DNA from: an uncultured Candidatus Saccharibacteria bacterium
GTDB lineage: Bacteria; Patescibacteriota; Doudnabacteria; UBA920
DNA: 64,000 bases
NCBI GenBank assembly: GCA_964490395.1
Contig: CAZBAS010000001.1
Span: 147,815 to 211,814 of the forward strand
Direction: 5' to 3'
In this document: in pieces, positions 4,728-58,856 of the stretch
Numbering within the stretch: the first letter of the stretch is position 1
How the letters are laid out: every line of letters begins with the position of its first letter
The notes under the pieces: model-generated
Databases searched by the model: none
Told to the model about the DNA's origin: nothing
Seen by the model: only the letters and a program-made list of their open reading frames with translations
Position numbers and translations under genes: made by a program

Positions 4728-5666
4728 ATGAATCTCTTACTTACGCTATTTTTCGCAATGTGGCCGCTGTATATCTTGGTTTTGTTAGGGGTGGTGGCTA
4801 AGCGGTTTCTCGCAGTTGAGTCCAAGTCCATTGCATCCTTGGTTGTGTATATACTTGCTCCCATAATTACGTTTCATGCTGTTGCAACGACACCGTTGAC
4901 CGTTGGTGCACTTTCCTTGCCAGTAGTCATGCTTGCCATTGCGCTTATAAGTTCGGCCCTGTTTTTTGCAGTAGGAGCTTGGGCATTTGGGAAAGGGAGC
5001 AGTCGGCAGTATTTACTGGCAGCTACCGCAGGAAGTAGCAATGCAGGCTATTTTGGTCTTGGCCTTGCGCTAGTACTGTTTCCAAAAGACCAGGTTAATT
5101 TAGTTATTCTTTCTATACTTGGTTCCATAGTGTTTCTCCATACATTTGGATTTTATCTGACTGCGCGCGGTAAGTTTACTGCCAAAGAGTCTTTCCATAG
5201 ACTGCTGCGTTTGCCAGTTATATACGCCTTTCTCCTTGGCTTGCTCGTTCATGCCGTACCTGTTTCATTTGGTCCTCACTACCTGGAAGTTATGAGTTGG
5301 TTCCGCGGGTCGTATACTGTACTTGGCATGATGATAGTCGGCTTGAGTGTTGCGACTATAGGGGGAGAGGTGTTCGATAAAAGATTTACCGCACTTTCTC
5401 TTGTGGCAAAGTTTCTGCTTTGGCCTTTGTTGGCCCTAGGGGTGCTGTGCGTGAATAGATACTATGTTCACTGGTACAACGCGCAGGCACAAGAAGTGAT
5501 ATGGCTTCTCTCCATAGTTCCCATAGCCACCAACACCGTCACGTATGCTAACCTACTAGAAATACATTCGGACGTGTCTGCCGTAAGTGTGCTCGTAAGT
5601 ACCATGCTTGCGCTGGCGTATATTCCGCTTATGTGGCCCGTAGTGCATTTGTTTGCTACCCGATAG
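4728..5666 (+). CDS. AEC-family (auxin efflux carrier-like) membrane transporter
   Basis: About 310 aa, roughly 10 predicted TM helices, with the composition and length of the AEC/malate-permease family. ATG at 4728 follows the track's GTG at 4722. Confidence 0.45.
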   Translation: MNLLLTLFFAMWPLYILVLLGVVAKRFLAVESKSIASLVVYILAPIITFHAVATTPLTVGALSLPVVMLAIALISSALFFAVGAWAFGKGSSRQYLLAATAGSSNAGYFGLGLALVLFPKDQVNLVILSILGSIVFLHTFGFYLTARGKFTAKESFHRLLRLPVIYAFLLGLLVHAVPVSFGPHYLEVMSWFRGSYTVLGMMIVGLSVATIGGEVFDKRFTALSLVAKFLLWPLLALGVLCVNRYYVHWYNAQAQEVIWLLSIVPIATNTVTYANLLEIHSDVSAVSVLVSTMLALAYIPLMWPVVHLFATR

Positions 5667-5722: not shown

Positions 5723-6223
5723 TTATGCTTGCGGTTTGCTGTCTTCACCGCGCCAGGCTTCGGCAGTGCCTATGTCGTGGCGACCGGACGCTTTTATATA
5801 GAGGAAGAATTGCATGCGGTATGCTGCCATATTCTTTAGAACATTGTCTATGAGCAACACACCTTTTGGCTGCGCGTGGCCGCTGCCCCACATGTCGAAC
5901 TCTTTTGCTATGTCGGAGTCACTCAGAGATGCGAGTAAATCTTGAATCTTTTTTCCCTCTGCATCCATGCGCTCGGCGAAGTTCTCTGCGGTAGTTTCTG
6001 CAGCGTATGCTCCAGAATTGGACAGCACTTCTCGGTTCTCCGTAACAATGAGCTCTAACAATGTGCCGCCAATATGAGACAGATACTGCATAAGTTCCAG
6101 CAGGGAACGTTGTTTTTCTGTAGGGCGATAGTCCAATGTGCCGGGGAGTATCTTGGTTGCTAAATGTTTTATTACCTTCACTTCATGAAGAAGGCTCTGT
6201 TCGTACTGTTGCTTCGTTATCAT
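5723..6223 (-). CDS. hypothetical protein, DinB/YfiT-like helical bundle (degenerate)
   Basis: 166 aa. The C-terminal segment NMAAYRMQFFLYIKASG parallels the HHRGQ region of the DinB-family protein at 17692, but the His residues are missing. Confidence 0.3.
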   Translation of the reverse strand: MITKQQYEQSLLHEVKVIKHLATKILPGTLDYRPTEKQRSLLELMQYLSHIGGTLLELIVTENREVLSNSGAYAAETTAENFAERMDAEGKKIQDLLASLSDSDIAKEFDMWGSGHAQPKGVLLIDNVLKNMAAYRMQFFLYIKASGRHDIGTAEAWRGEDSKPQA

Positions 6224-11165: not shown

Positions 11166-12560
11166 GTGTTAAGCAGAAACAAAACGCGTTTGTCTACTGA
11201 ATCAGAACAAGTTAAAAAATATAGCATCGCCTTACTCATCCTACTCATTGCTTTTGGGTGCGTGTTTGGTATGGTGTACCTACTCATGCAGCGCCGTATG
11301 CATGCTCCGAGCTTTTCTGCGAGTGAGCAAGTAAAACGCATATATACAGTAACGTATACCGACAGCGGGTACAGCCCGAGTTCGTTAGAAGTACCGCTTG
11401 GGGCAACAGTAGTATTCCAAAACGATTCTACCATGCCCATGTGGACGGCATCTGATCCCCACCCGACTCACACCGATTATGCAGAGTTCGACTCCCACGC
11501 AAATACTCTACCTGGTGAATCGTACTCTTTTATCTTTGCCAAGAGCGGTACATTTGGCTACCACAACCACGCACGATCAATTCATAGAGGTATCGTACGA
11601 GTGCTCAGCAAGTCGCAGCTACCAAGCATAGACAAGACCGTAGAGGGGAAGCGCGCAGTGCGGGATGGATATATGAGCCAGTTTGTACCGGGCGATCCAA
11701 GTTCTATTTACGCTGTTATGGACGCTATAGAGGCGAACAGTGCTTTAGCGCGGGATTGTCATGACATGGCGCACGATCTTGGTCATCGTGCCTATGAGCT
11801 GTATGGTTTTTCCGGTGCCATGACGTTTGGTGATCCAAATAGACTGAGCAATACATCCACGGACGACATTTGCGCAGGCGGTTACATGCACGGCATTCTG
11901 GAAGAGCTGTTCCTGCACCAGCCAGAGCTTAAGGATGCGCCTGGGAGTGTGTGCGCGGGTGTGCCCTACATAAACCGCGGCAGCTGTTTTCATGGGGTAG
12001 GTCATGGCCTTATGTTTGCAAACAAGCGTGATGTCCCAGCATCGCTTGCAACCTGTAAGGGTCTTGCACATAGGGAAGATGCGCACCGCTGCTACGAAGG
12101 GGTGTGGATGGAAATGTTCTGGGGAAATGTAGAGCATGCAGGTAGTAACTCACTTGGGTGGACTCTAGAAGACCCGCTTGCTCCTTGTAAGCATGCAGGC
12201 CTAGAAGAAAAACCCGCGTGCTTCCTCTATGCCCACCTCGGGTACCTGCGGACACACAAGGCAGACTACGCAGGAATGGTAGCGCTATGCACTACAAACA
12301 ACCTTGAGAAAAAAGACGAGCAATTTTGCCTGAAAGGTGTTGGTATAACCATGATGAAGCACTTTAGTAGTCATCGCCTAGAAAATACTGAGTCTCTGGT
12401 GGCTGGTCTAGACCATGACAGTAAATACGCGTACTATCAAGGAGTAATTGGCTACTCCAGACTCTCTGCGGTAAGCGAACCAGACCTCCATACTTTTTGT
12501 ACTTGGCTCAAAACCGACCGCGTCATATGCGAAGACGTCCTGCGAAATGGTACGGATTAA
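11166..12560 (+). CDS. membrane-anchored protein with a His-rich beta-sandwich (cupredoxin-like) domain and a 6x Cys/His repeat domain
   Basis: 464 aa. TM near the N-terminus. TVVFQNDSTMPMWTASDPHPTH...GTFGYHNHARSIHRGIV, then six roughly 40-aa-spaced motifs C-x2-G-x2-H/M-G (CAGGYMHG, CFHGVGHG, CYEGVWME, CFLYAHLG, CLKGVGIT and others). GTG start. Confidence 0.45.
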   Translation: MLSRNKTRLSTESEQVKKYSIALLILLIAFGCVFGMVYLLMQRRMHAPSFSASEQVKRIYTVTYTDSGYSPSSLEVPLGATVVFQNDSTMPMWTASDPHPTHTDYAEFDSHANTLPGESYSFIFAKSGTFGYHNHARSIHRGIVRVLSKSQLPSIDKTVEGKRAVRDGYMSQFVPGDPSSIYAVMDAIEANSALARDCHDMAHDLGHRAYELYGFSGAMTFGDPNRLSNTSTDDICAGGYMHGILEELFLHQPELKDAPGSVCAGVPYINRGSCFHGVGHGLMFANKRDVPASLATCKGLAHREDAHRCYEGVWMEMFWGNVEHAGSNSLGWTLEDPLAPCKHAGLEEKPACFLYAHLGYLRTHKADYAGMVALCTTNNLEKKDEQFCLKGVGITMMKHFSSHRLENTESLVAGLDHDSKYAYYQGVIGYSRLSAVSEPDLHTFCTWLKTDRVICEDVLRNGTD

Positions 12561-12574
12561 GCACGTAAAACAAT

Positions 12575-12600
12575 AAAAAAGGTGTCTGGCACCTTTTTTA
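12575..12600. terminator. terminator hairpin, family AAAAGGTG-N5-CACCTTTT, copy 1
   Basis: AAAAAAGGTGTCTGGCACCTTTTTT. Confidence 0.65.
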
Positions 12601-12620
12601 TTGTTTGGTATAATGGCCAT

Positions 12621-13262
12621 ATGATGGAAGCAAAAAACCTGCCTCGTATGGTCATTTTTGACTTTGATGGGGTTATAATAGACTCTCTTAAGGTGATAGA
12701 ACAGTTTGACCAATGGTTATATCCGGGTCTTACAGACGAGGAGTGGAAAGAGACTAATTACGGAAACTATTTTCAAAAAATGCACCCGCACGAACATAAG
12801 AGAAGGGTGGTTACTGACGACCAAATGCACCAAAAGCGGGAAGAATTTTATACCATCAAAAGCAAGTGCGCTATATTTCCCGGTCTGAAAGAGTGCATAA
12901 TGAATATTCCAGAAGACACAATTTGTGTGTTAAATTCCAATTCCAAACTTGGCGGCGTGTTGCCATTTTTGCAGATTCATGGTTTGGATAAGAAATTCTC
13001 TTTTTTGGCAACCAAAGAGGTTTCCCCTTCTAAGCAGGATAAACTATTGTTGTCTCTAGAAAAATACAATGTTAAAAAAGAAGATGCTGTATTTGTAACA
13101 GATACTGTTGGTGACTTGCTAGAGGGTGAGGCAGTTGGAATAAATGTCATAGCAGTTACGTGGGGTATTCATTCAAAACAAGACTTTCTCGAATATGGGC
13201 CGTACAAAATAGCGGAGAATGCGGAAGAATTACGTAAAGTTATAGCAGATTACCTTATCTAG
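12621..13262 (+). CDS. HAD-family hydrolase (phosphatase)
   Basis: Motif I MVIFDFDGVIID and a C-terminal VTDTVGD. Start re-assigned to the ATG at 12621. TATAAT at 12609-12614 lies only 6 nt upstream, suggesting a leaderless mRNA. Confidence 0.7.
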   Translation: MMEAKNLPRMVIFDFDGVIIDSLKVIEQFDQWLYPGLTDEEWKETNYGNYFQKMHPHEHKRRVVTDDQMHQKREEFYTIKSKCAIFPGLKECIMNIPEDTICVLNSNSKLGGVLPFLQIHGLDKKFSFLATKEVSPSKQDKLLLSLEKYNVKKEDAVFVTDTVGDLLEGEAVGINVIAVTWGIHSKQDFLEYGPYKIAENAEELRKVIADYLI

Positions 13263-13265
13263 TGA

Positions 13266-13290
13266 AAAAGGTGTCAGGCACCTTTTATTT
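13266..13290. terminator. terminator hairpin, family copy 2 (bidirectional, between convergent genes)
   Basis: GAAAAAGGTGTCAGGCACCTTTTATTTTTTT. Confidence 0.65.
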
Positions 13291-13305
13291 TTTTATACTT
13301 AGTAC

Positions 13306-14079
13306 CTATCGGGGTAATCCTTCAGGTAGAATGTGCCACATGGTAAGGAACCAGTGAGTCATTATTTTGGCTATATCCTCTGACTCAATAATAACAGCAT
13401 GAGGGTCTTTACTGTTTTCAAAGGAGAATATGGCAGTGATGTTTCCGCCACATGTAACATCGCCACTAAATGCGAGTGCACTGCCTGGTGCAAACTTATA
13501 GTGGGCGAGTGGCTCTGCAATACGGCCACTGGCTACAGCAGTTCTATCGTCCAGCGGATAAATAAGATGTGCTTTTGTGTTGTTTTGAACACGACGTTCT
13601 ATCCACCGTCTAAAATATCTGGGCATGACTGCGTATATTTGCGAGCCGTGGCTAATGGCGTAGCAGTTTTTAACTGACTTCTTCTCAAAATGTTCGATAA
13701 CCTCATCCCAAGCCTTCTGAAGTCCAGCCATACCTTTGTATACCCGAACATCTACGGCATGGTTTTTTATGGGAACAATATGTTCAAGTGCTGGTAGTAG
13801 TTCGCTCGTTATGCGCTGCCTCTCCTCTAGGTCCTTTTTCCAAACGCTGAAAGATGCAGGTACGTAGACCCGTTTTTTATTTTGTATGCTTGAGCGGACC
13901 AGGCCCCTCTCGACTAGGTTTTCGAGTGTGGCGTATGCAGTACCGCGAGGTACTCGCATTGCCTTACTTGCTTCATAGCCTGTACTTTGTACGTGGCCTA
14001 CTAGCCACACGTAGAGGCGGGCTTCAGCTTGAGTAAGGCCTAGCTGCATTAAACTATCGGTAAGTTCAGGTGTTTTCAT
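13306..14079 (-). CDS. TrmB-family transcriptional regulator
   Basis: N-terminal winged HTH (LGLTQAEARLYVWLVGHVQSTGYEASKAMRVPRGTAYATLENLVERGLV) plus a roughly 170-aa C-terminal domain. Start re-assigned to the ATG at 14079. Confidence 0.55.
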   Translation of the reverse strand: MKTPELTDSLMQLGLTQAEARLYVWLVGHVQSTGYEASKAMRVPRGTAYATLENLVERGLVRSSIQNKKRVYVPASFSVWKKDLEERQRITSELLPALEHIVPIKNHAVDVRVYKGMAGLQKAWDEVIEHFEKKSVKNCYAISHGSQIYAVMPRYFRRWIERRVQNNTKAHLIYPLDDRTAVASGRIAEPLAHYKFAPGSALAFSGDVTCGGNITAIFSFENSKDPHAVIIESEDIAKIMTHWFLTMWHILPEGLPR

Positions 14080-14236
14080 AACGATGACTAATATATGACA
14101 TAGTAGCAAATAGCGTCAGAAAAGTCGACGCCTAAATACTAAATATATGTCTTATAAATAAGACAAATGTATAAATATTATATATTTTATTCAATAAAAA
14201 AAGTACATATTCCAGTGATTTGTTTATTATTGTGGC

Positions 14237-15049
14237 ATGGCACGGAAGTACGCACATGCTAAGCACTTACCCCAAGGGGTATCACTCGAAAGCCACCAGG
14301 TAGCGTGGGATTTTGTTGCTGCCCAATATGCTGGCGGCACTGCTCTGCCTGCGTGGGGTACCAGGGGTGAGTTGCAATACGAACAAATCTTAGAAGATGT
14401 AAAAGGTAGGCGAGTATTGGAAATAGGGTTTGGTTCGGGAGATTCTATTATATATCTTATCCGCCAAGGAGCGGGCTCGGTTGTGGGGATAGACTTTAGC
14501 AAGGGTCAGCATGCCTTGGCCAGCAGCCGCATTGCACGTTCGTTTAAAAACTCACCAAAGCTTATGGCGAAGGTTGAGCTGCGGACACAGTCAATGGATT
14601 CAGAGTTGCCAGCCGGTCCGTTTGACGCTGTTATTGCTGTGTATAGTGTGGGGTGGTCAGAACAACCTGAACAGCTCTTTCGTAAGATATATACTGTTTT
14701 AAATCCGGGCGGTTATTTTTATTTTTCATGGGACCATTACCTAAGCCGAGTCGCGGAGTACGGTGAGGGAGGTGTTCGCATAACTAAAAGTTACCATGAA
14801 CCAATGCCACTCATACGAGAGGATTGGAAGGGAAGTGGTCAGATTATTGAAACGCACCAGCTCAGGCCCAGTGATTGGTTTGCTCTATTAATTAAAGCTG
14901 GTTTTGTGGTTGATGGCTTTTGGGAGCCAAAACCAAATCGTGATATTCCGTTGCAAGAAGTATATTCACAAGCATATGCAAATGAGATTGGCGTCTTGCT
15001 GCCCACATGTGTTGTGTTTAGAGCGCGGAAAGGGGGTCCCGCTTTATGA
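14237..15049 (+). CDS. class I SAM-dependent methyltransferase
   Basis: Motif I VLEIGFGSGDS. 270 aa. Confidence 0.7.
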   Translation: MARKYAHAKHLPQGVSLESHQVAWDFVAAQYAGGTALPAWGTRGELQYEQILEDVKGRRVLEIGFGSGDSIIYLIRQGAGSVVGIDFSKGQHALASSRIARSFKNSPKLMAKVELRTQSMDSELPAGPFDAVIAVYSVGWSEQPEQLFRKIYTVLNPGGYFYFSWDHYLSRVAEYGEGGVRITKSYHEPMPLIREDWKGSGQIIETHQLRPSDWFALLIKAGFVVDGFWEPKPNRDIPLQEVYSQAYANEIGVLLPTCVVFRARKGGPAL

Positions 15050-15651
15050 GTATCCCCACAAAGACCATAGCTCTTGTAGGTAAATCAATGGTGCCGGTTC
15101 AGGATCCTGCGTACAAGTTTATAAAAGAATTGGCATACAACTTAGTGGCTTCCGGTTATGCTATTCGTCATGGGGGGTATGGTGGAGGTATTATGGAAGC
15201 CGCAGCAGAAGGGGCGGCTTTGGCAATTCTAGAAAATAACTTACATGCCTCTTGCAACATTGGAGTGCCGGAATCGGGATTTGATATAGATTATGCTCGC
15301 GTTAAGAGTGGCGTGTTTCTAGAGCCTGCAAGAGATATATGTGATCGACTACGCAGTTTGGTACTAAGCTCCAACTATATGATTGTGGCTCCACGGGGTG
15401 GTGATGGTACTATGCTTGAGCTGCAATTGGCGCTACATGAGAATTTGGTTAGAGATGTAGGGAGTGCCCGCCCTATTATTCTTTGTGAGTTGCCCGGTGG
15501 AACGCGTTGGAGCGATATTCTTGCCACCCAACTAAATTTGCTTGATAACGATACGCATTCGTTACACAACCATTTGTGGGTGTATGTTGCGCATAGCGTG
15601 AAAGAAATAATAGATTTGTTGGCTTTTTATGAAGCCAGCGTGAGGCCATAA
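15046..15651 (+). CDS. LOG-family (TIGR00730/SLOG, nucleotide 5'-monophosphate nucleosidase-like) protein
   Basis: GGYGGGIMEAAAEGA and PRGGDGTMLEL correspond to the LOG GGGxGxMG / PGGxGTxxE motifs. ATGA overlap with the upstream methyltransferase. Confidence 0.55.
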   Translation: MSIPTKTIALVGKSMVPVQDPAYKFIKELAYNLVASGYAIRHGGYGGGIMEAAAEGAALAILENNLHASCNIGVPESGFDIDYARVKSGVFLEPARDICDRLRSLVLSSNYMIVAPRGGDGTMLELQLALHENLVRDVGSARPIILCELPGGTRWSDILATQLNLLDNDTHSLHNHLWVYVAHSVKEIIDLLAFYEASVRP

Positions 15652-15712
15652 CGCAATTTCTTGCGTTAGTTTCAATAATGTGAAATTCTATCGTAGAAGG
15701 TAGAAAATCCAT

Positions 15713-16306
15713 ATGAAAAAATATTATGCTTTTATAATTGTGGCCGGTGTATTGGTTATTGGTGCAGCGTATGCCTGGCACCGAAATGAACCTGCTGCAA
15801 ATACGCCTGCCGTGGCTCCAGTGGTAGTGGTTTCTGCTGAACAGCAAGTGCAAAATGCAAAAGCAGGAGTGTTTACACGTCCTACAGATGGAGAAATAAA
15901 AGCAAAACTTACGGCACTCCAGTACCATGTGACTCAAGAGCAGGGGACGGAAACACCGTTTCAGAATGAATATTGGCACAATGAACAGGTAGGGTTATAT
16001 GTAGATATAGTTTCCGGCGAACCACTCTTTTCCTCTAAAGATAAATACGATTCAGGTACGGGTTGGCCCTCGTTTACCAAACCGCTCAAACCGAATGCAG
16101 TACTAGCGCGGACCGATACGCTCCTTGGCACGCCGCGCACAGAAATTATGAGCGCTATAGCCAAGTCGCATCTGGGACATGTGTTCAATGATGGGCCACA
16201 GCCTACGGGCAAACGGTACTGCATGAATTCTGCTGCTCTGCGCTTTATTCCGGCTGCGCAACTTGAAGCACAGGGGTATGGTGCGTATGTAGAACTATTC
16301 CAGTAG
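15713..16306 (+). CDS. msrB: peptide-methionine (R)-S-oxide reductase MsrB with an N-terminal membrane anchor
   Basis: SelR motifs [17 protein letters not shown] and [10 protein letters not shown]-terminal TM ([19 protein letters not shown]). Confidence 0.8.
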
Positions 16307-16317
16307 AAAGTACAACT

Positions 16318-16920
16318 ATGGATGTAAGCACTTCAGACAAAATACGACTAACCAGATTTTACGAAGAGGCCTTGCTTAAGTATGGCCCAGACAGCGCCCA
16401 GGCTTTGCAGTGGAAAAATCGAAAGAGCCAGCAGGTACGGTTTGCCGCGCTTTCTCAGGCGGCAAACCTTGCAGGAAAGAGTGTGCTCGATGTAGGGTGC
16501 GGGGTGGGGGATTTATACAAATATCTCCAAAACTCATTTGGGCGCGTGGACTACTGCGGACTAGATGTAGTGCCTGGTATGATTGCGGCTGCAAAACAGA
16601 AATACCCGGGTGCGCGCTTTGTGCATGCAAATGTGCTAGATTTTACCGAGCAGTACGACTATGTCTTAGCATCGGGCGCGCTGACCTACAATATGCAGGG
16701 CGGCAAGGAGCTGTATTTTGAGATTATAAAACACATGTACGCTCTGGCAAAAAAGGGCGTTGCATTTAATGTGCTGGACAACGATGTCTATGCAACTGAC
16801 CACGAGTACCTTACGTACACCTACGCAGAAATAGCTGCTCTTTGCGAAACGCTCAATTGCCAATTTGTGGTTTCTACTGAGTACGAAGTAGGGGATTTCA
16901 CAGTGTTTTTGTATAAGTAG
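16318..16920 (+). CDS. class I SAM-dependent methyltransferase
   Basis: Motif I VLDVGCGVGDL. 200 aa. Confidence 0.7.
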   Translation: MDVSTSDKIRLTRFYEEALLKYGPDSAQALQWKNRKSQQVRFAALSQAANLAGKSVLDVGCGVGDLYKYLQNSFGRVDYCGLDVVPGMIAAAKQKYPGARFVHANVLDFTEQYDYVLASGALTYNMQGGKELYFEIIKHMYALAKKGVAFNVLDNDVYATDHEYLTYTYAEIAALCETLNCQFVVSTEYEVGDFTVFLYK

Positions 16921-57929: not shown

Positions 57930-58856
57930 TTGGATTGCCGCGTCGGATGCAAGGCCAATCTGATAAAGATAAAAGTTTTCTCATATTTTTACTTTTTCCT
58001 CATGCACAATTTCTTTCTTACCATAATTTTTTGGATAGATCGGTTCCTCCAGCTGCTTGGTTTAAGACGACAGCGGCAGCTTGGGGTTATTTACGATAGT
58101 GTTACCAAGCAGCCCATAGACCCAGTTGTGGTGAAACTTATAGATGTGCATACATCCAAAGTTATTGCTTCGAATATTGCCAACATGCAAGGCGAGTATG
58201 GGTTCATGGCAGACCCGGGTTTGTACCAAATATATGTGCAGCGCCCGCACTATGCATTTCCCTCTACGCGCATACAAAGTTTACGTGATGGCGTGTACTA
58301 CCCCGTGTACCATGGAGAAAATTTTGAGTTCGTCGGTGGTAAGGACGTTATTTCCATGAGTATACCGCTGGACCCCATTGCGGCTGACTGGAACCAAGAA
58401 GCCAAAAAAGCCACCATGCCTGTGCATCCAGTGCTCCAATATGCCATTAGTGTAATACTGCGAATATTGTTTTGGTCTGCATTGCTACTCACTGTTATAA
58501 CATTCCTCGCAACAAGGGCTGACCTATGGGTGTATGTGCTCGGTGCGTATGTTTTGGTTATTTTGCTCGCGCTTATTACTCCTCGTGTGCGCTTGTGGGG
58601 GAGGGTGCGCGTTAAAAAAGGCGGGCTACCTGTTGTGGGCGCAAGTGTAGAAGTGTCTCATGCAAAACTCCCCGGAGTTATAATAGCCAAAGCAGTAACC
58701 GTAACAGATGGTAAGTTTTTTATCCGCATTGGCCGAGGCTCATATACCGTAACGGTAAAAGTGCCTCCACTTAAAGACGGGCCTCCCGCACCGCCCATAG
58801 AATTCAGCATCCACGCTGGCTCAACTGGCGTTTTAAACCGGGAATTTTATATATGA
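57930..58856 (+). CDS. membrane protein with two carboxypeptidase-regulatory-like beta domains
   Basis: GVIYDSVTKQPIDPVVVKL... and GRVRVKKGGLPVVGASVEV...TDGKFFI are separated by 2 TMs. The start may be the internal ATG at 58002 (MHNFF). Confidence 0.4.
   Translation: MDCRVGCKANLIKIKVFSYFYFFLMHNFFLTIIFWIDRFLQLLGLRRQRQLGVIYDSVTKQPIDPVVVKLIDVHTSKVIASNIANMQGEYGFMADPGLYQIYVQRPHYAFPSTRIQSLRDGVYYPVYHGENFEFVGGKDVISMSIPLDPIAADWNQEAKKATMPVHPVLQYAISVILRILFWSALLLTVITFLATRADLWVYVLGAYVLVILLALITPRVRLWGRVRVKKGGLPVVGASVEVSHAKLPGVIIAKAVTVTDGKFFIRIGRGSYTVTVKVPPLKDGPPAPPIEFSIHAGSTGVLNREFYI

Follow-up and report, generated by a model that had tools for sequence, protein, structure and literature searches.

A conserved methyltransferase and divergent LOG-family gene pair beside a TrmB-like regulator in candidate phyla radiation bacteria

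We describe a locus in a 64,000-nucleotide stretch of DNA from an uncultured Candidatus Saccharibacteria bacterium (positions 147,815 to 211,814 of contig CAZBAS010000001.1; this whole stretch is called the window below). A gene for a class I S-adenosylmethionine (SAM) methyltransferase, MT1, is followed there by the gene for a divergent LOG-family protein of the SLOG superfamily, referred to here as the SLOG protein, and a gene for a TrmB-like regulator is transcribed divergently from the pair. A methyltransferase gene accompanies the SLOG gene in every lineage in which we found one, and related operons often carry a third gene that points to cytosine nucleotides. We tentatively read the locus as a TrmB-controlled two-enzyme module giving a methylated free base, likely derived from cytosine, and we rate this reading at slightly less than an even chance; we infer its substrates, order of steps, product and regulatory ligand from sequence, predicted structure and analogy. 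MT1 and the SLOG protein are proposed to be the core of a module specific to the candidate phyla radiation (CPR), or Patescibacteria.

The methyltransferase–SLOG pair

Relatives of the SLOG protein are few. An exhaustive HMMER search of 1.84 billion representatives returned 56 at E<=1e-3, 20 at <=1e-10 and 5 at <=1e-30, and because no more than 56 were found in a collection of that size the clade is, by this measure, rare. All of the relatives that carry a name belong to CPR/Patescibacteria. Genome contigs were also scanned with a nine-sequence SLOG alignment to find relatives, and a metagenome scan contributed one further locus, L015, among the matches listed; on viral contigs, no relatives of the SLOG clade were found. 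We counted as separate lineages those loci with less than 90% SLOG identity to each other, which gave 16 lineages from metagenome assemblies and from named metagenome-assembled genomes (MAGs) of Saccharibacteria, Campbellbacteria and Paceibacterota.

In 16/16 lineages the SLOG gene is preceded, on the same strand, by a gene for a class I methyltransferase. The two genes either adjoin directly, overlapping by as much as 4 nt or standing up to a few tens of nucleotides apart, or have only a gene of the thymidylate synthase (TS) family between them. At one locus (L010) the methyltransferase is visible as a 26-aa fragment only, and at another (L016) the two proteins are fused into one of 479 aa (P0012), with a divergent TrmB gene also present. 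The pairing persists to about 30% SLOG identity, with translational coupling in many loci. In the window, MT1 is the first gene of a bicistronic unit, and the two genes overlap by the four bases ATGA at 15046-15049, where MT1 ends in GCT TTA TGA and the SLOG gene begins ATG AGT ATC; a Shine-Dalgarno-like AAGGGGG run lies 9 nt upstream of the SLOG ATG. The original prediction, made from the window alone, had described five open reading frames (ORFs) and this overlap, both of which were confirmed, and the adjacency that it singled out recurs well beyond the window, once as a fusion. Such adjacency is far beyond chance, and the comparison of loci marks the pair as a genuine, deeply conserved functional unit.

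The partner methyltransferases are not all alike. MT1 itself matches the Pfam families Methyltransf_11/25/23/12/31 above cut-off. Its AlphaFold2 (AF2) model (pLDDT 78.5) is closest to 3bkw, 3g5l and 3l8d, which are uncharacterised methyltransferases from structural genomics, and next to SpnF, AtmM, MitM, RebM, ToxA, NNMT and ArsM, which are natural-product or small-molecule methyltransferases; the structure comparison found it unlike DNA, RNA or protein methyltransferases. MT1 is thus placed among enzymes of the small-molecule type. Only 11 clusters make up its family, and one of these carries the source label 'UbiE'. The partners at L012, L014 and L015 (group B) belong to the MT1 family, aligning through the C-terminal lid (hhalign 98.4%, E=6.7e-15). 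Those at L017, L018, L020 and L021 (group C) match MT1 over the Rossmann core only, and no better than does a control, the second methyltransferase of the locus, MT2 (both hhalign about 93%, E about 3e-7). We considered a single family for all SLOG-adjacent methyltransferases and rejected it on this ground. Because the link to SLOG spans two methyltransferase families and a fusion, a functional requirement is favoured over inherited synteny. Profile classification of MT1 and MT2, which the original prediction had looked to for substrate subfamilies, placed both among class I SAM methyltransferases but brought no NCBIfam equivalog near its cut-off for either. At L006:3-490 the MT1 gene is split over two frames (3-341 and 257-490), a possible case of decay, a pseudogene or an assembly error.

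Curated models recognise the SLOG protein poorly. It scores 19.2 bits against TIGR00730 (cut-off 96.35), so that the LOG-family threshold is missed, and 21 bits against the PpnN profile (cut-off 450). It gives no match to PF03641, which the clade members P0012 (28.7) and P0010 (22.8) reach weakly, and it matches PF18306 (SLOG cluster 4, LDcluster4) with its N-terminal part only, at 23.9 bits for a gathering cut-off of 26.3. Clade relatives do exceed the PF18306 cut-off (P0009 28.8, P0012 33.3), and P0001 to P0006 carry a precomputed PF18306 annotation. The LOG-family assignment holds despite the missed cut-offs because of these relatives, a clade profile and the predicted fold. A profile built from a 23-sequence clade alignment matches solved LOGs at E=5e-15. 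The AF2 model (pLDDT 93.5) finds YgdH, type-II and type-I LOG, TT1465 and PpnN as its best Foldseek matches, with probability 1.0 and TM 0.65-0.74, at sequence identities of 17-24% to solved LOGs.

The residues expected of a LOG enzyme are largely retained. Both catalytic positions are in place, since the clade motifs dRlr...GGdGTllE align with eRK...GGfGTldE of LOGs; the catalytic R101, within DRLR, aligns with the Arg of ERK/aRK in 9us2, 5zi9 and 5wq3. Residues G43, G44, Y45, G48, M50, R101, G119, G121, T122, E125 and W155 are invariant in the clade alignment, and Y45, R101, T122 and E125 are invariant as well in 17 locus-derived sequences from the 16 lineages. Residues 117-125 of the window protein, RGGDGTMLE, keep the GGxGTxxE pattern with the Pro moved by one position (APR). 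Throughout the clade this second motif reads R/L/I-GGDGT with the Pro displaced, with minor variants at L015 (GGDET) and L016 (AGMGT). The first glycine-rich motif of the window protein reads HGGYGGGIM where LOGs have GGGxG. The LOG motifs claimed in the original prediction are therefore borne out by clade profile and fold, but in variant form and under curated cut-offs that the protein misses. Taken together, profile and model identify a divergent LOG-family protein, not a canonical LOG, with an intact catalytic Arg/Glu dyad, and we predict that it is a nucleoside-5'-monophosphate N-glycosidase.

A thymidylate synthase paralogue and the TrmB-like regulator

The strongest functional clue, a cytosine-type TS paralogue identified by its residues, lies outside the window, in the operons of relatives. 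In 7/16 lineages (L001, L007, L011, L012, L013, L014 and L015) a TS-family gene, which we call Thy(Asp), sits within the operon, where it either separates the methyltransferase gene from SLOG or follows SLOG directly, and usually overlaps its neighbour or lies 2-10 nt from it (Table 1). The copy at L013:5121-5962 is split into ORFs 5121-5528 and 5729-5962, which may reflect decay, a pseudogene or an assembly error.

More than 60 clusters, at >=52% identity, make up the Thy(Asp) clade, which is distinct and appears to be uncharacterised. The clade is nearest to genuine TS (best PDB matches at E about 1e-58; about 200 bits against TIGR03284; 39% identical to CPR TS), and it keeps the TS C-terminus, the folate-site residues and Ser167. 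Its active site is changed at R126'K, H147P, F176N, N177D, D205Q and H207E (E. coli numbering). Canonical TS sequences from the same search, those of Parcubacteria, Patescibacteria and DPANN included, keep R, H, F, N, D and H at these positions, and a second group, of 292 aa, has K, P, F, D, N and E. In the enzymes characterised so far, Asp at the E. coli 177 position marks those acting on cytosine nucleotides (MilA D186, BcmA, T4 dCMP hydroxymethylase D179) and Asn those acting on uracil nucleotides; Lys126' is common to the ribonucleotide-preferring MilA and BcmA, and the sugar-binding His, replaced by Glu207 in Thy(Asp), has been called extremely conserved (PMC5175136). From these residues the Thy(Asp) clade is predicted to act on cytosine nucleotides.

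We also considered a phage origin for Thy(Asp) and rejected it, as no phage TS-family match has the CPR signature (0/80 genes). Viral contigs yielded no close Thy(Asp), and an alignment-based scan of them gave only generic phage TS-family genes of <=40% identity. Among these 80 phage genes (L024-L103), 52 are of an Asp type with R-C-H-S-Y-D-D-H-Y at positions 126, 146, 147, 167, 176, 177, 205, 207 and 209, that is, with Tyr176 and Asp177 in an otherwise canonical site. They probably encode enzymes that modify deoxycytidine monophosphate (dCMP) and are distinct from the CPR clade.

Upstream of the pair, the divergent TrmB-family regulator named in the original prediction proved to be a conserved partner with an operator-like dyad. 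Its PF01978 domain scores 53.8 bits (gathering cut-off 25.6) and covers residues 20-87 of the long ORF. The true start is likely the ATG at 14079 (MKTPEL..., 257 aa), which we prefer because orthologue calls are 257 aa. The resemblance to TrmB ends with the DNA-binding domain: only the N-terminal winged helix aligns with P. furiosus TrmB (3qph, residues 5-93), and the NCBIfam TrmB and TrmBL1 equivalogs match the first ~100 residues only, at 25 and 17 bits for cut-offs of 600 and 650. For the C-terminal domain a PDB search found no detectable relative, the TrmB sugar-binding domain included.

A divergent TrmB-like gene is present in 7/12 lineages with visible upstream DNA. Orthologues of 65-67% identity are divergent upstream of MT1 at L001, L007 and L022, and more distant ones occur at L011, L013, L016 and L021. 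Gene order across lineages thus defines the conserved unit as TrmB together with MT1–SLOG. Several TrmB-family paralogues can share a contig, as at L006 (1940-2644, 5993-6796 and 8863-8990), L013:2641-3453 and L022:3915-4679, a pattern suggesting that these CPR genomes use TrmB-like proteins as a major class of regulator.

The TrmB/MT1 intergenic region of the window is 157 nt long and holds a dyad, CGTC-N9-GACG, whose full form is GCGTC-AGAAAAGTC-GACGC, 35 nt from the TrmB start codon. The same CGTC-N9-GACG stands 41-42 nt from the TrmB start at L001, L007 and L022, in intergenic DNA that has otherwise diverged, and TGTC-N9-GACA stands 11 nt from the TrmB start at L011 and L013. NGTC-N9-GACN has a background density of 0.153 matches per kb, which predicts about 0.024 in one intergenic region. 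A further GTC-N9-GAC dyad occurs at +117 in L007 and in L022. We read the conserved dyad near the TrmB start as a phylogenetic footprint that fits a TrmB-like operator, and from this footprint we predict binding.

In the window as a whole, CGTC-N9-GACG was observed 3 times for 0.28 expected. The second copy (12521-12537) lies just upstream of a variable HAD cassette and 1.6 kb from the TrmB/MT1 operator, and the cassette might, on this pattern, share the TrmB/MT1 regulon; the third (58331-58347) lies inside an ORF and may be due to chance. The divergent region also contains the palindrome TGTCTTAT-AA-ATAAGACA, which reads as TGTC-N10-GACA, is conserved in L008 and is possibly a second pair of operator half-sites. 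A consensus-based promoter scan of the divergent region was uninformative, with 10 promoter-like sites for 8.2 expected.

Among other observations near these genes, an unannotated ORF of ~151 aa precedes the methyltransferase at L017:4738-5196 and L018:4736-5191, at the end of a run of peptidoglycan-synthesis genes, and the copy in L017 weakly matches a TrmB-module profile (E=2e-6). A recurrent link of the module to peptidoglycan genes (L001, L011, L013, L017 and L018) was entertained and judged not clearly above chance for small CPR genomes.

The proposed pathway and its alternatives

In the mechanism that we propose, 14237-15651 would be a translationally coupled operon controlled by the divergent TrmB-like regulator through the dyad at 14114-14130. 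The SLOG protein would cleave the N-glycosidic bond of a nucleoside 5'-monophosphate to give a free base and (deoxy)ribose 5-phosphate, and MT1 would methylate the released base, or the nucleotide just before cleavage. Where present, Thy(Asp) would supply cytidine monophosphate (CMP) or dCMP that is C5-(hydroxy)methylated, which is why cytosine nucleotides are the likely substrate class. The genome of the window would hold a two-gene version, with the C5-modifying enzyme elsewhere in the genome or absent. By analogy, PpnN, whose PDB molecule name is 'pyrimidine/purine nucleotide 5'-monophosphate nucleosidase', offers a precedent for the cleavage of pyrimidine nucleoside monophosphates (NMPs) by a LOG-family enzyme. 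The original prediction had suggested methylation combined with N-glycosidic processing, and the conserved pairing and the catalytic Arg and Glu lend support to that idea and sharpen it.

If this proposal is true, a rare branch of the LOG/SLOG proteins confined to CPR bacteria would gain a function, and modified pyrimidine bases would prove to have a second, non-homologous route of synthesis by way of a TS-like enzyme, an N-glycosidase and a methyltransferase. Bacimethrin, a thiamin antivitamin, and the base of mildiomycin both arise by chemistry of this kind. Secondary metabolism is thought to be almost lacking in CPR bacteria, and a dedicated, regulated pathway for modified nucleobases would bear on the interaction between episymbiont and host. 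Thy(Asp), with K126', P147, D177 and E207, is an uncharacterised clade in a heavily studied family of drug targets. A more ambitious version of the proposal is that CPR bacteria, which are ultra-small, host-dependent and of minimal metabolism, have a hitherto unrecognised LOG-based pathway of three enzymes, namely a unique TS paralogue acting on CMP or dCMP, a LOG-like N-glycosidase and a SAM methyltransferase, to a methylated free base of the 5-(hydroxy)methylcytosine type, used as a bacimethrin-like antimetabolite or signal against host or competitors and switched by TrmB, of which the window holds the two-gene core. We consider this version distinctly unlikely.

Several observations weigh against the two-enzyme pathway. 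The SLOG protein of the window scores under the curated family cut-offs. The link to cytosine rests on relatives, because no TS-family gene was found in a search of the 64-kb window and no close Thy(Asp) cluster mapped to the 357,935-bp source contig, the latter being an indirect test. Since Thy(Asp) keeps the TS C-terminus and folate-site residues, its activity may be that of a methylase instead of a hydroxymethylase, or it may even provide the thymidylate route of its lineage. The partner methyltransferases come from two families, which may not share one substrate. In a Candidatus Taylorbacteria MAG (L022:7070-8801 and L023:1232-2963) the divergent TrmB–MT1 arrangement is kept (67% identity for TrmB and 60% for MT1), but neither a SLOG nor a Thy gene occurs within 16.8 kb, and MT1 can therefore work without the glycosidase. 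(After MT1 at these two loci, a SpoU-type methylase is encoded on the opposite strand.) No transporter, ThiD2 or thiaminase gene was found at the window locus or at the related loci examined, and the flanking of the module by housekeeping genes argues against a strict bacimethrin assignment.

Four rival explanations were weighed, and all are less well supported than the two-enzyme pathway. The first is housekeeping salvage or pool sanitation, in which a PpnN-like NMP nucleosidase would recycle ribose 5-phosphate and bases in an organism that relies on scavenged nucleotides, or clear aberrant or modified (d)NMPs derived from host or phage nucleic acid, while the methyltransferase would detoxify or mark the freed base or have an only loosely related role. 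The genomic setting suits such a role, as the module lies amid genes for DnaN, penicillin-binding proteins, aminoacyl-tRNA synthetases, RuvC and Mur ligases, with no biosynthetic island and no transporter; PpnN and YgdH are among the nearest structures, a NUDIX gene follows the pair at L021, and at L022 MT1 occurs without a SLOG gene. A general enzyme, however, would not need a methyltransferase that is strictly linked in 16/16 lineages and sometimes fused to it, an operon TS-family enzyme making a C5-modified cytosine nucleotide points to production and not to removal, and the rarity of the clade is unexpected for a core salvage function. We therefore regard salvage as unlikely.

The second rival takes the pair to make a purine, cytokinin-like signal: MT1 would add a methyl group to AMP or to a different purine nucleotide, from which the LOG-like enzyme would free a methylated purine base as a diffusible signal between episymbiont and host, much as LOGs activate cytokinins. 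Canonical LOGs act on N6-substituted AMP, the nearest matches in both sequence and structure are LOG enzymes, and the catalytic residues are kept. The sole recurrent third partner, though, belongs to the TS family, whose enzymes act on pyrimidine nucleotides, and no purine-modifying gene, such as one for an isopentenyltransferase, was found near the loci examined. The altered first glycine-rich motif, with its inserted invariant Tyr45, also suggests a different base pocket, and a purine signal seems to us very unlikely.

A conflict or anti-phage system, in which the SLOG protein would sense a nucleotide signal and the methyltransferase would be an effector or modification component, has hardly any probability. 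Conflict systems supplied much of the basis on which the SLOG superfamily was defined, and in PADLOC the ThsA STALD domain (E=3e-4) and the methyltransferase domain of mad2 were matched weakly. Yet the PADLOC-DB matches are generic only (the mad2 methyltransferase, weak ThsA-STALD and a weak Csa3/CARF helix-turn-helix), and no effector domain (nuclease, TIR, SIR2 or pore) was found. The invariance of the LOG catalytic residues argues for an enzyme and not a sensor, and the absence of relatives on viral contigs, the housekeeping context and the stable chromosomal positions all count against conflict. The fourth rival concerns the genes downstream and is taken up with them below.

Locus layout, neighbouring genes and known systems

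The features of the locus, together with six Thy(Asp) genes of related operons, are collected in Table 1.

Table 1. Features of the window locus and Thy(Asp) genes at related loci
Feature	Position	Strand	Basis
TrmB-like regulator	13306-14079 (ATG start; ORF may reach TTG at 14109)	-	PF01978
Putative operator dyad CGTC-N9-GACG	14114-14130	.	Sequence match to related loci
Palindrome TGTCTTAT-AA-ATAAGACA	14148-14165	.	Perfect repeat in divergent promoter region
MT1, class I SAM methyltransferase, 270 aa	14237-15049	+	Pfam matches above cut-off
Divergent LOG-family (SLOG cluster 4-like) protein, 201 aa	15046-15651	+	Clade profile and predicted fold
Hairpin over SLOG stop codon	15641-15674	+	RNA fold prediction
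MsrB with N-terminal signal/anchor segment	15713-16306	+	TIGR00357
MT2, second class I methyltransferase, 200 aa	16318-16920	+	Generic methyltransferase Pfam matches
Thy(Asp) gene	L001:2640-3476		
Thy(Asp) gene	L007:4616-5308		
Thy(Asp) gene	L011:5154-5993		
Thy(Asp) gene	L012:5086-5910		
Thy(Asp) gene	L014:6617-7534		
Thy(Asp) gene	L015:2410-3246		

MsrB is securely identified (TIGR00357, 197.2 bits for a cut-off of 113.05; PF01641, 158 for 24.9). Its residues 4-22 are strongly hydrophobic (Kyte-Doolittle 1.90), in keeping with the N-terminal transmembrane segment of the original prediction, but such a segment is not unusual for an Msr, as the surface-exposed SpMsrAB2 of S. pneumoniae is a precedent for secreted or anchored forms (PMC3914529). 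The protein has a single Cys, C170 in RYCMNS (the RxCxN motif), and is without CxxC pairs.

The hairpin has the core AACGCAA-TTTC-TTGCGTT without a clean U-tract. Folding of 15640-15712 gave -21.6 kcal/mol (z = -4.9), and 0/200 shuffles were as good; a consensus terminator scan does not call the hairpin, its T-tail being weak. The structure could be a terminator, an attenuator or a stabiliser between MT1–SLOG and MsrB–MT2. Only in a ~96%-identical strain, L008/L009, is the pair followed by MsrB and MT2, and MT2 was found only in L008, at 100% identity. Because the linkage is limited to this strain, gene order makes MsrB and MT2 bystanders outside the conserved module, and their inclusion in it by the original prediction does not stand. 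The last rival, that TrmB, MT1, SLOG, MsrB and MT2 form one cluster such as an oxidative-stress or envelope-repair unit, has in its favour the single strand and short gaps of the downstream genes (61 nt from SLOG to MsrB and 11 nt from MsrB to MT2, in the window and in L008), but it is exceedingly improbable given the different genes found in this position in all other lineages, the strong hairpin between SLOG and MsrB, and a relation of MT2 to MT1 that covers the generic Rossmann core only (hhalign 93%, 77 columns).

In other lineages the position 3' of the pair is taken by a TS-family gene, NUDIX, glyoxalase, DUF6190 or unrelated genes; the NUDIX hydrolase gene directly after SLOG is at L021:6614-7024. 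A C5 cytosine DNA methylase gene lies upstream of the pair at L015:115-999. The window is collinear with contig L008 (~98-99.6% identical) except for one swapped cassette directly 3' of the TrmB gene, which in the window (12560-13306) holds a HAD_2 phosphatase gene (12582-13262) and in L008 (2279-2905) a gene for a 194-aa nucleotidyltransferase of the NTP_transf_5/Aminoglyc_resit type. Beyond the cassette, the window ORF 11166-12560 encodes 464 aa with a hydrophobic segment at the N-terminus and a C-terminal part rich in Cys and His; it matched no family, showed a weak cupredoxin-like region that stays under the cut-off (PF13473, 20 bits), and is kept in L008 at 99.6% DNA identity. Base composition at the locus is unremarkable and without sign of recent horizontal transfer, and the Rfam content of the window is one tRNA and no other family.

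Our findings can be set beside several known systems. With the LOG/PpnN family (cytokinin riboside 5'-monophosphate phosphoribohydrolase; PF03641, TIGR00730; YgdH/PpnN) the SLOG protein shares the Rossmann-like fold, the catalytic Arg and Glu and the predicted conversion of NMP to base and ribose 5-phosphate. It differs in the motif HGGY-GG-M with an invariant Tyr, in the displaced Pro of the second motif and in missing the curated cut-offs. To our knowledge, neither LOG nor PpnN has been described as linked or fused to a methyltransferase, and the literature that we searched gave no account of a pairing of LOG with a methyltransferase or with TS.

The regulator resembles the sugar-sensing TrmB family in its PF01978 winged helix, overall length, two-domain layout and inferred palindromic control of a divergent operon, and departs from it in a C-terminal effector domain without detectable similarity to the sugar-binding domain. 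MsrB resembles surface or extracytoplasmic Msr proteins such as SpMsrAB2, which works with Etrx lipoproteins (PMC3914529), in having its domain behind an N-terminal hydrophobic segment; unlike SpMsrAB2 it is MsrB only, with a single Cys, no Zn-binding CxxC and no adjacent thioredoxin-like or CcdA partner.

Mildiomycin biosynthesis uses the CMP hydroxymethylase MilA and the N-glycosidase MilB, which acts on the hydroxymethyl-CMP (hmCMP) formed (PMC5175136, PMC4081090). The proposed pathway would share with MilA/MilB the C5 modification of CMP by an Asp-bearing TS-family enzyme followed by release of the base. Unlike Thy(Asp), MilA has Ala176 and a large C-terminal extension, and the mildiomycin route is without a methyltransferase step and is encoded in a large Streptomyces antibiotic cluster.

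The closest parallel is the bacimethrin pathway. As reported from Cooper et al. 2014 in PMC12345177 and PMC4081090, it comprises a TS-like CMP hydroxymethylase, BcmA, an N-glycosidase, BcmB, and a methyltransferase, BcmC, and in the outline given in PMC12345177 CMP is converted to 5-hydroxymethyl-CMP, then to 5-hydroxymethylcytosine and finally to bacimethrin. The operons of 7/16 lineages likewise bring together a TS-family enzyme (with Asp and Lys126'), a predicted nucleotide N-glycosidase and a SAM methyltransferase, MT1 being likened to BcmC by enzyme class only. The glycosidase here is of the LOG family, whereas MilB and BcmB are NDT-family enzymes (PMC4081090). Thy(Asp) is also unlike the BcmA-type enzyme in that it derives from canonical TS, with Ser167 kept and changes of its own at H147P and H207E. 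In contrast with the described bacimethrin clusters, the CPR loci show no ThiD2, thiaminase or transporter, and the window is without a TS-like gene. We therefore offer as a proposal, drawn from gene content and conserved residues, that these loci encode a LOG-based version of the modified-base route, so far found only in CPR bacteria and placed under a TrmB-like regulator.

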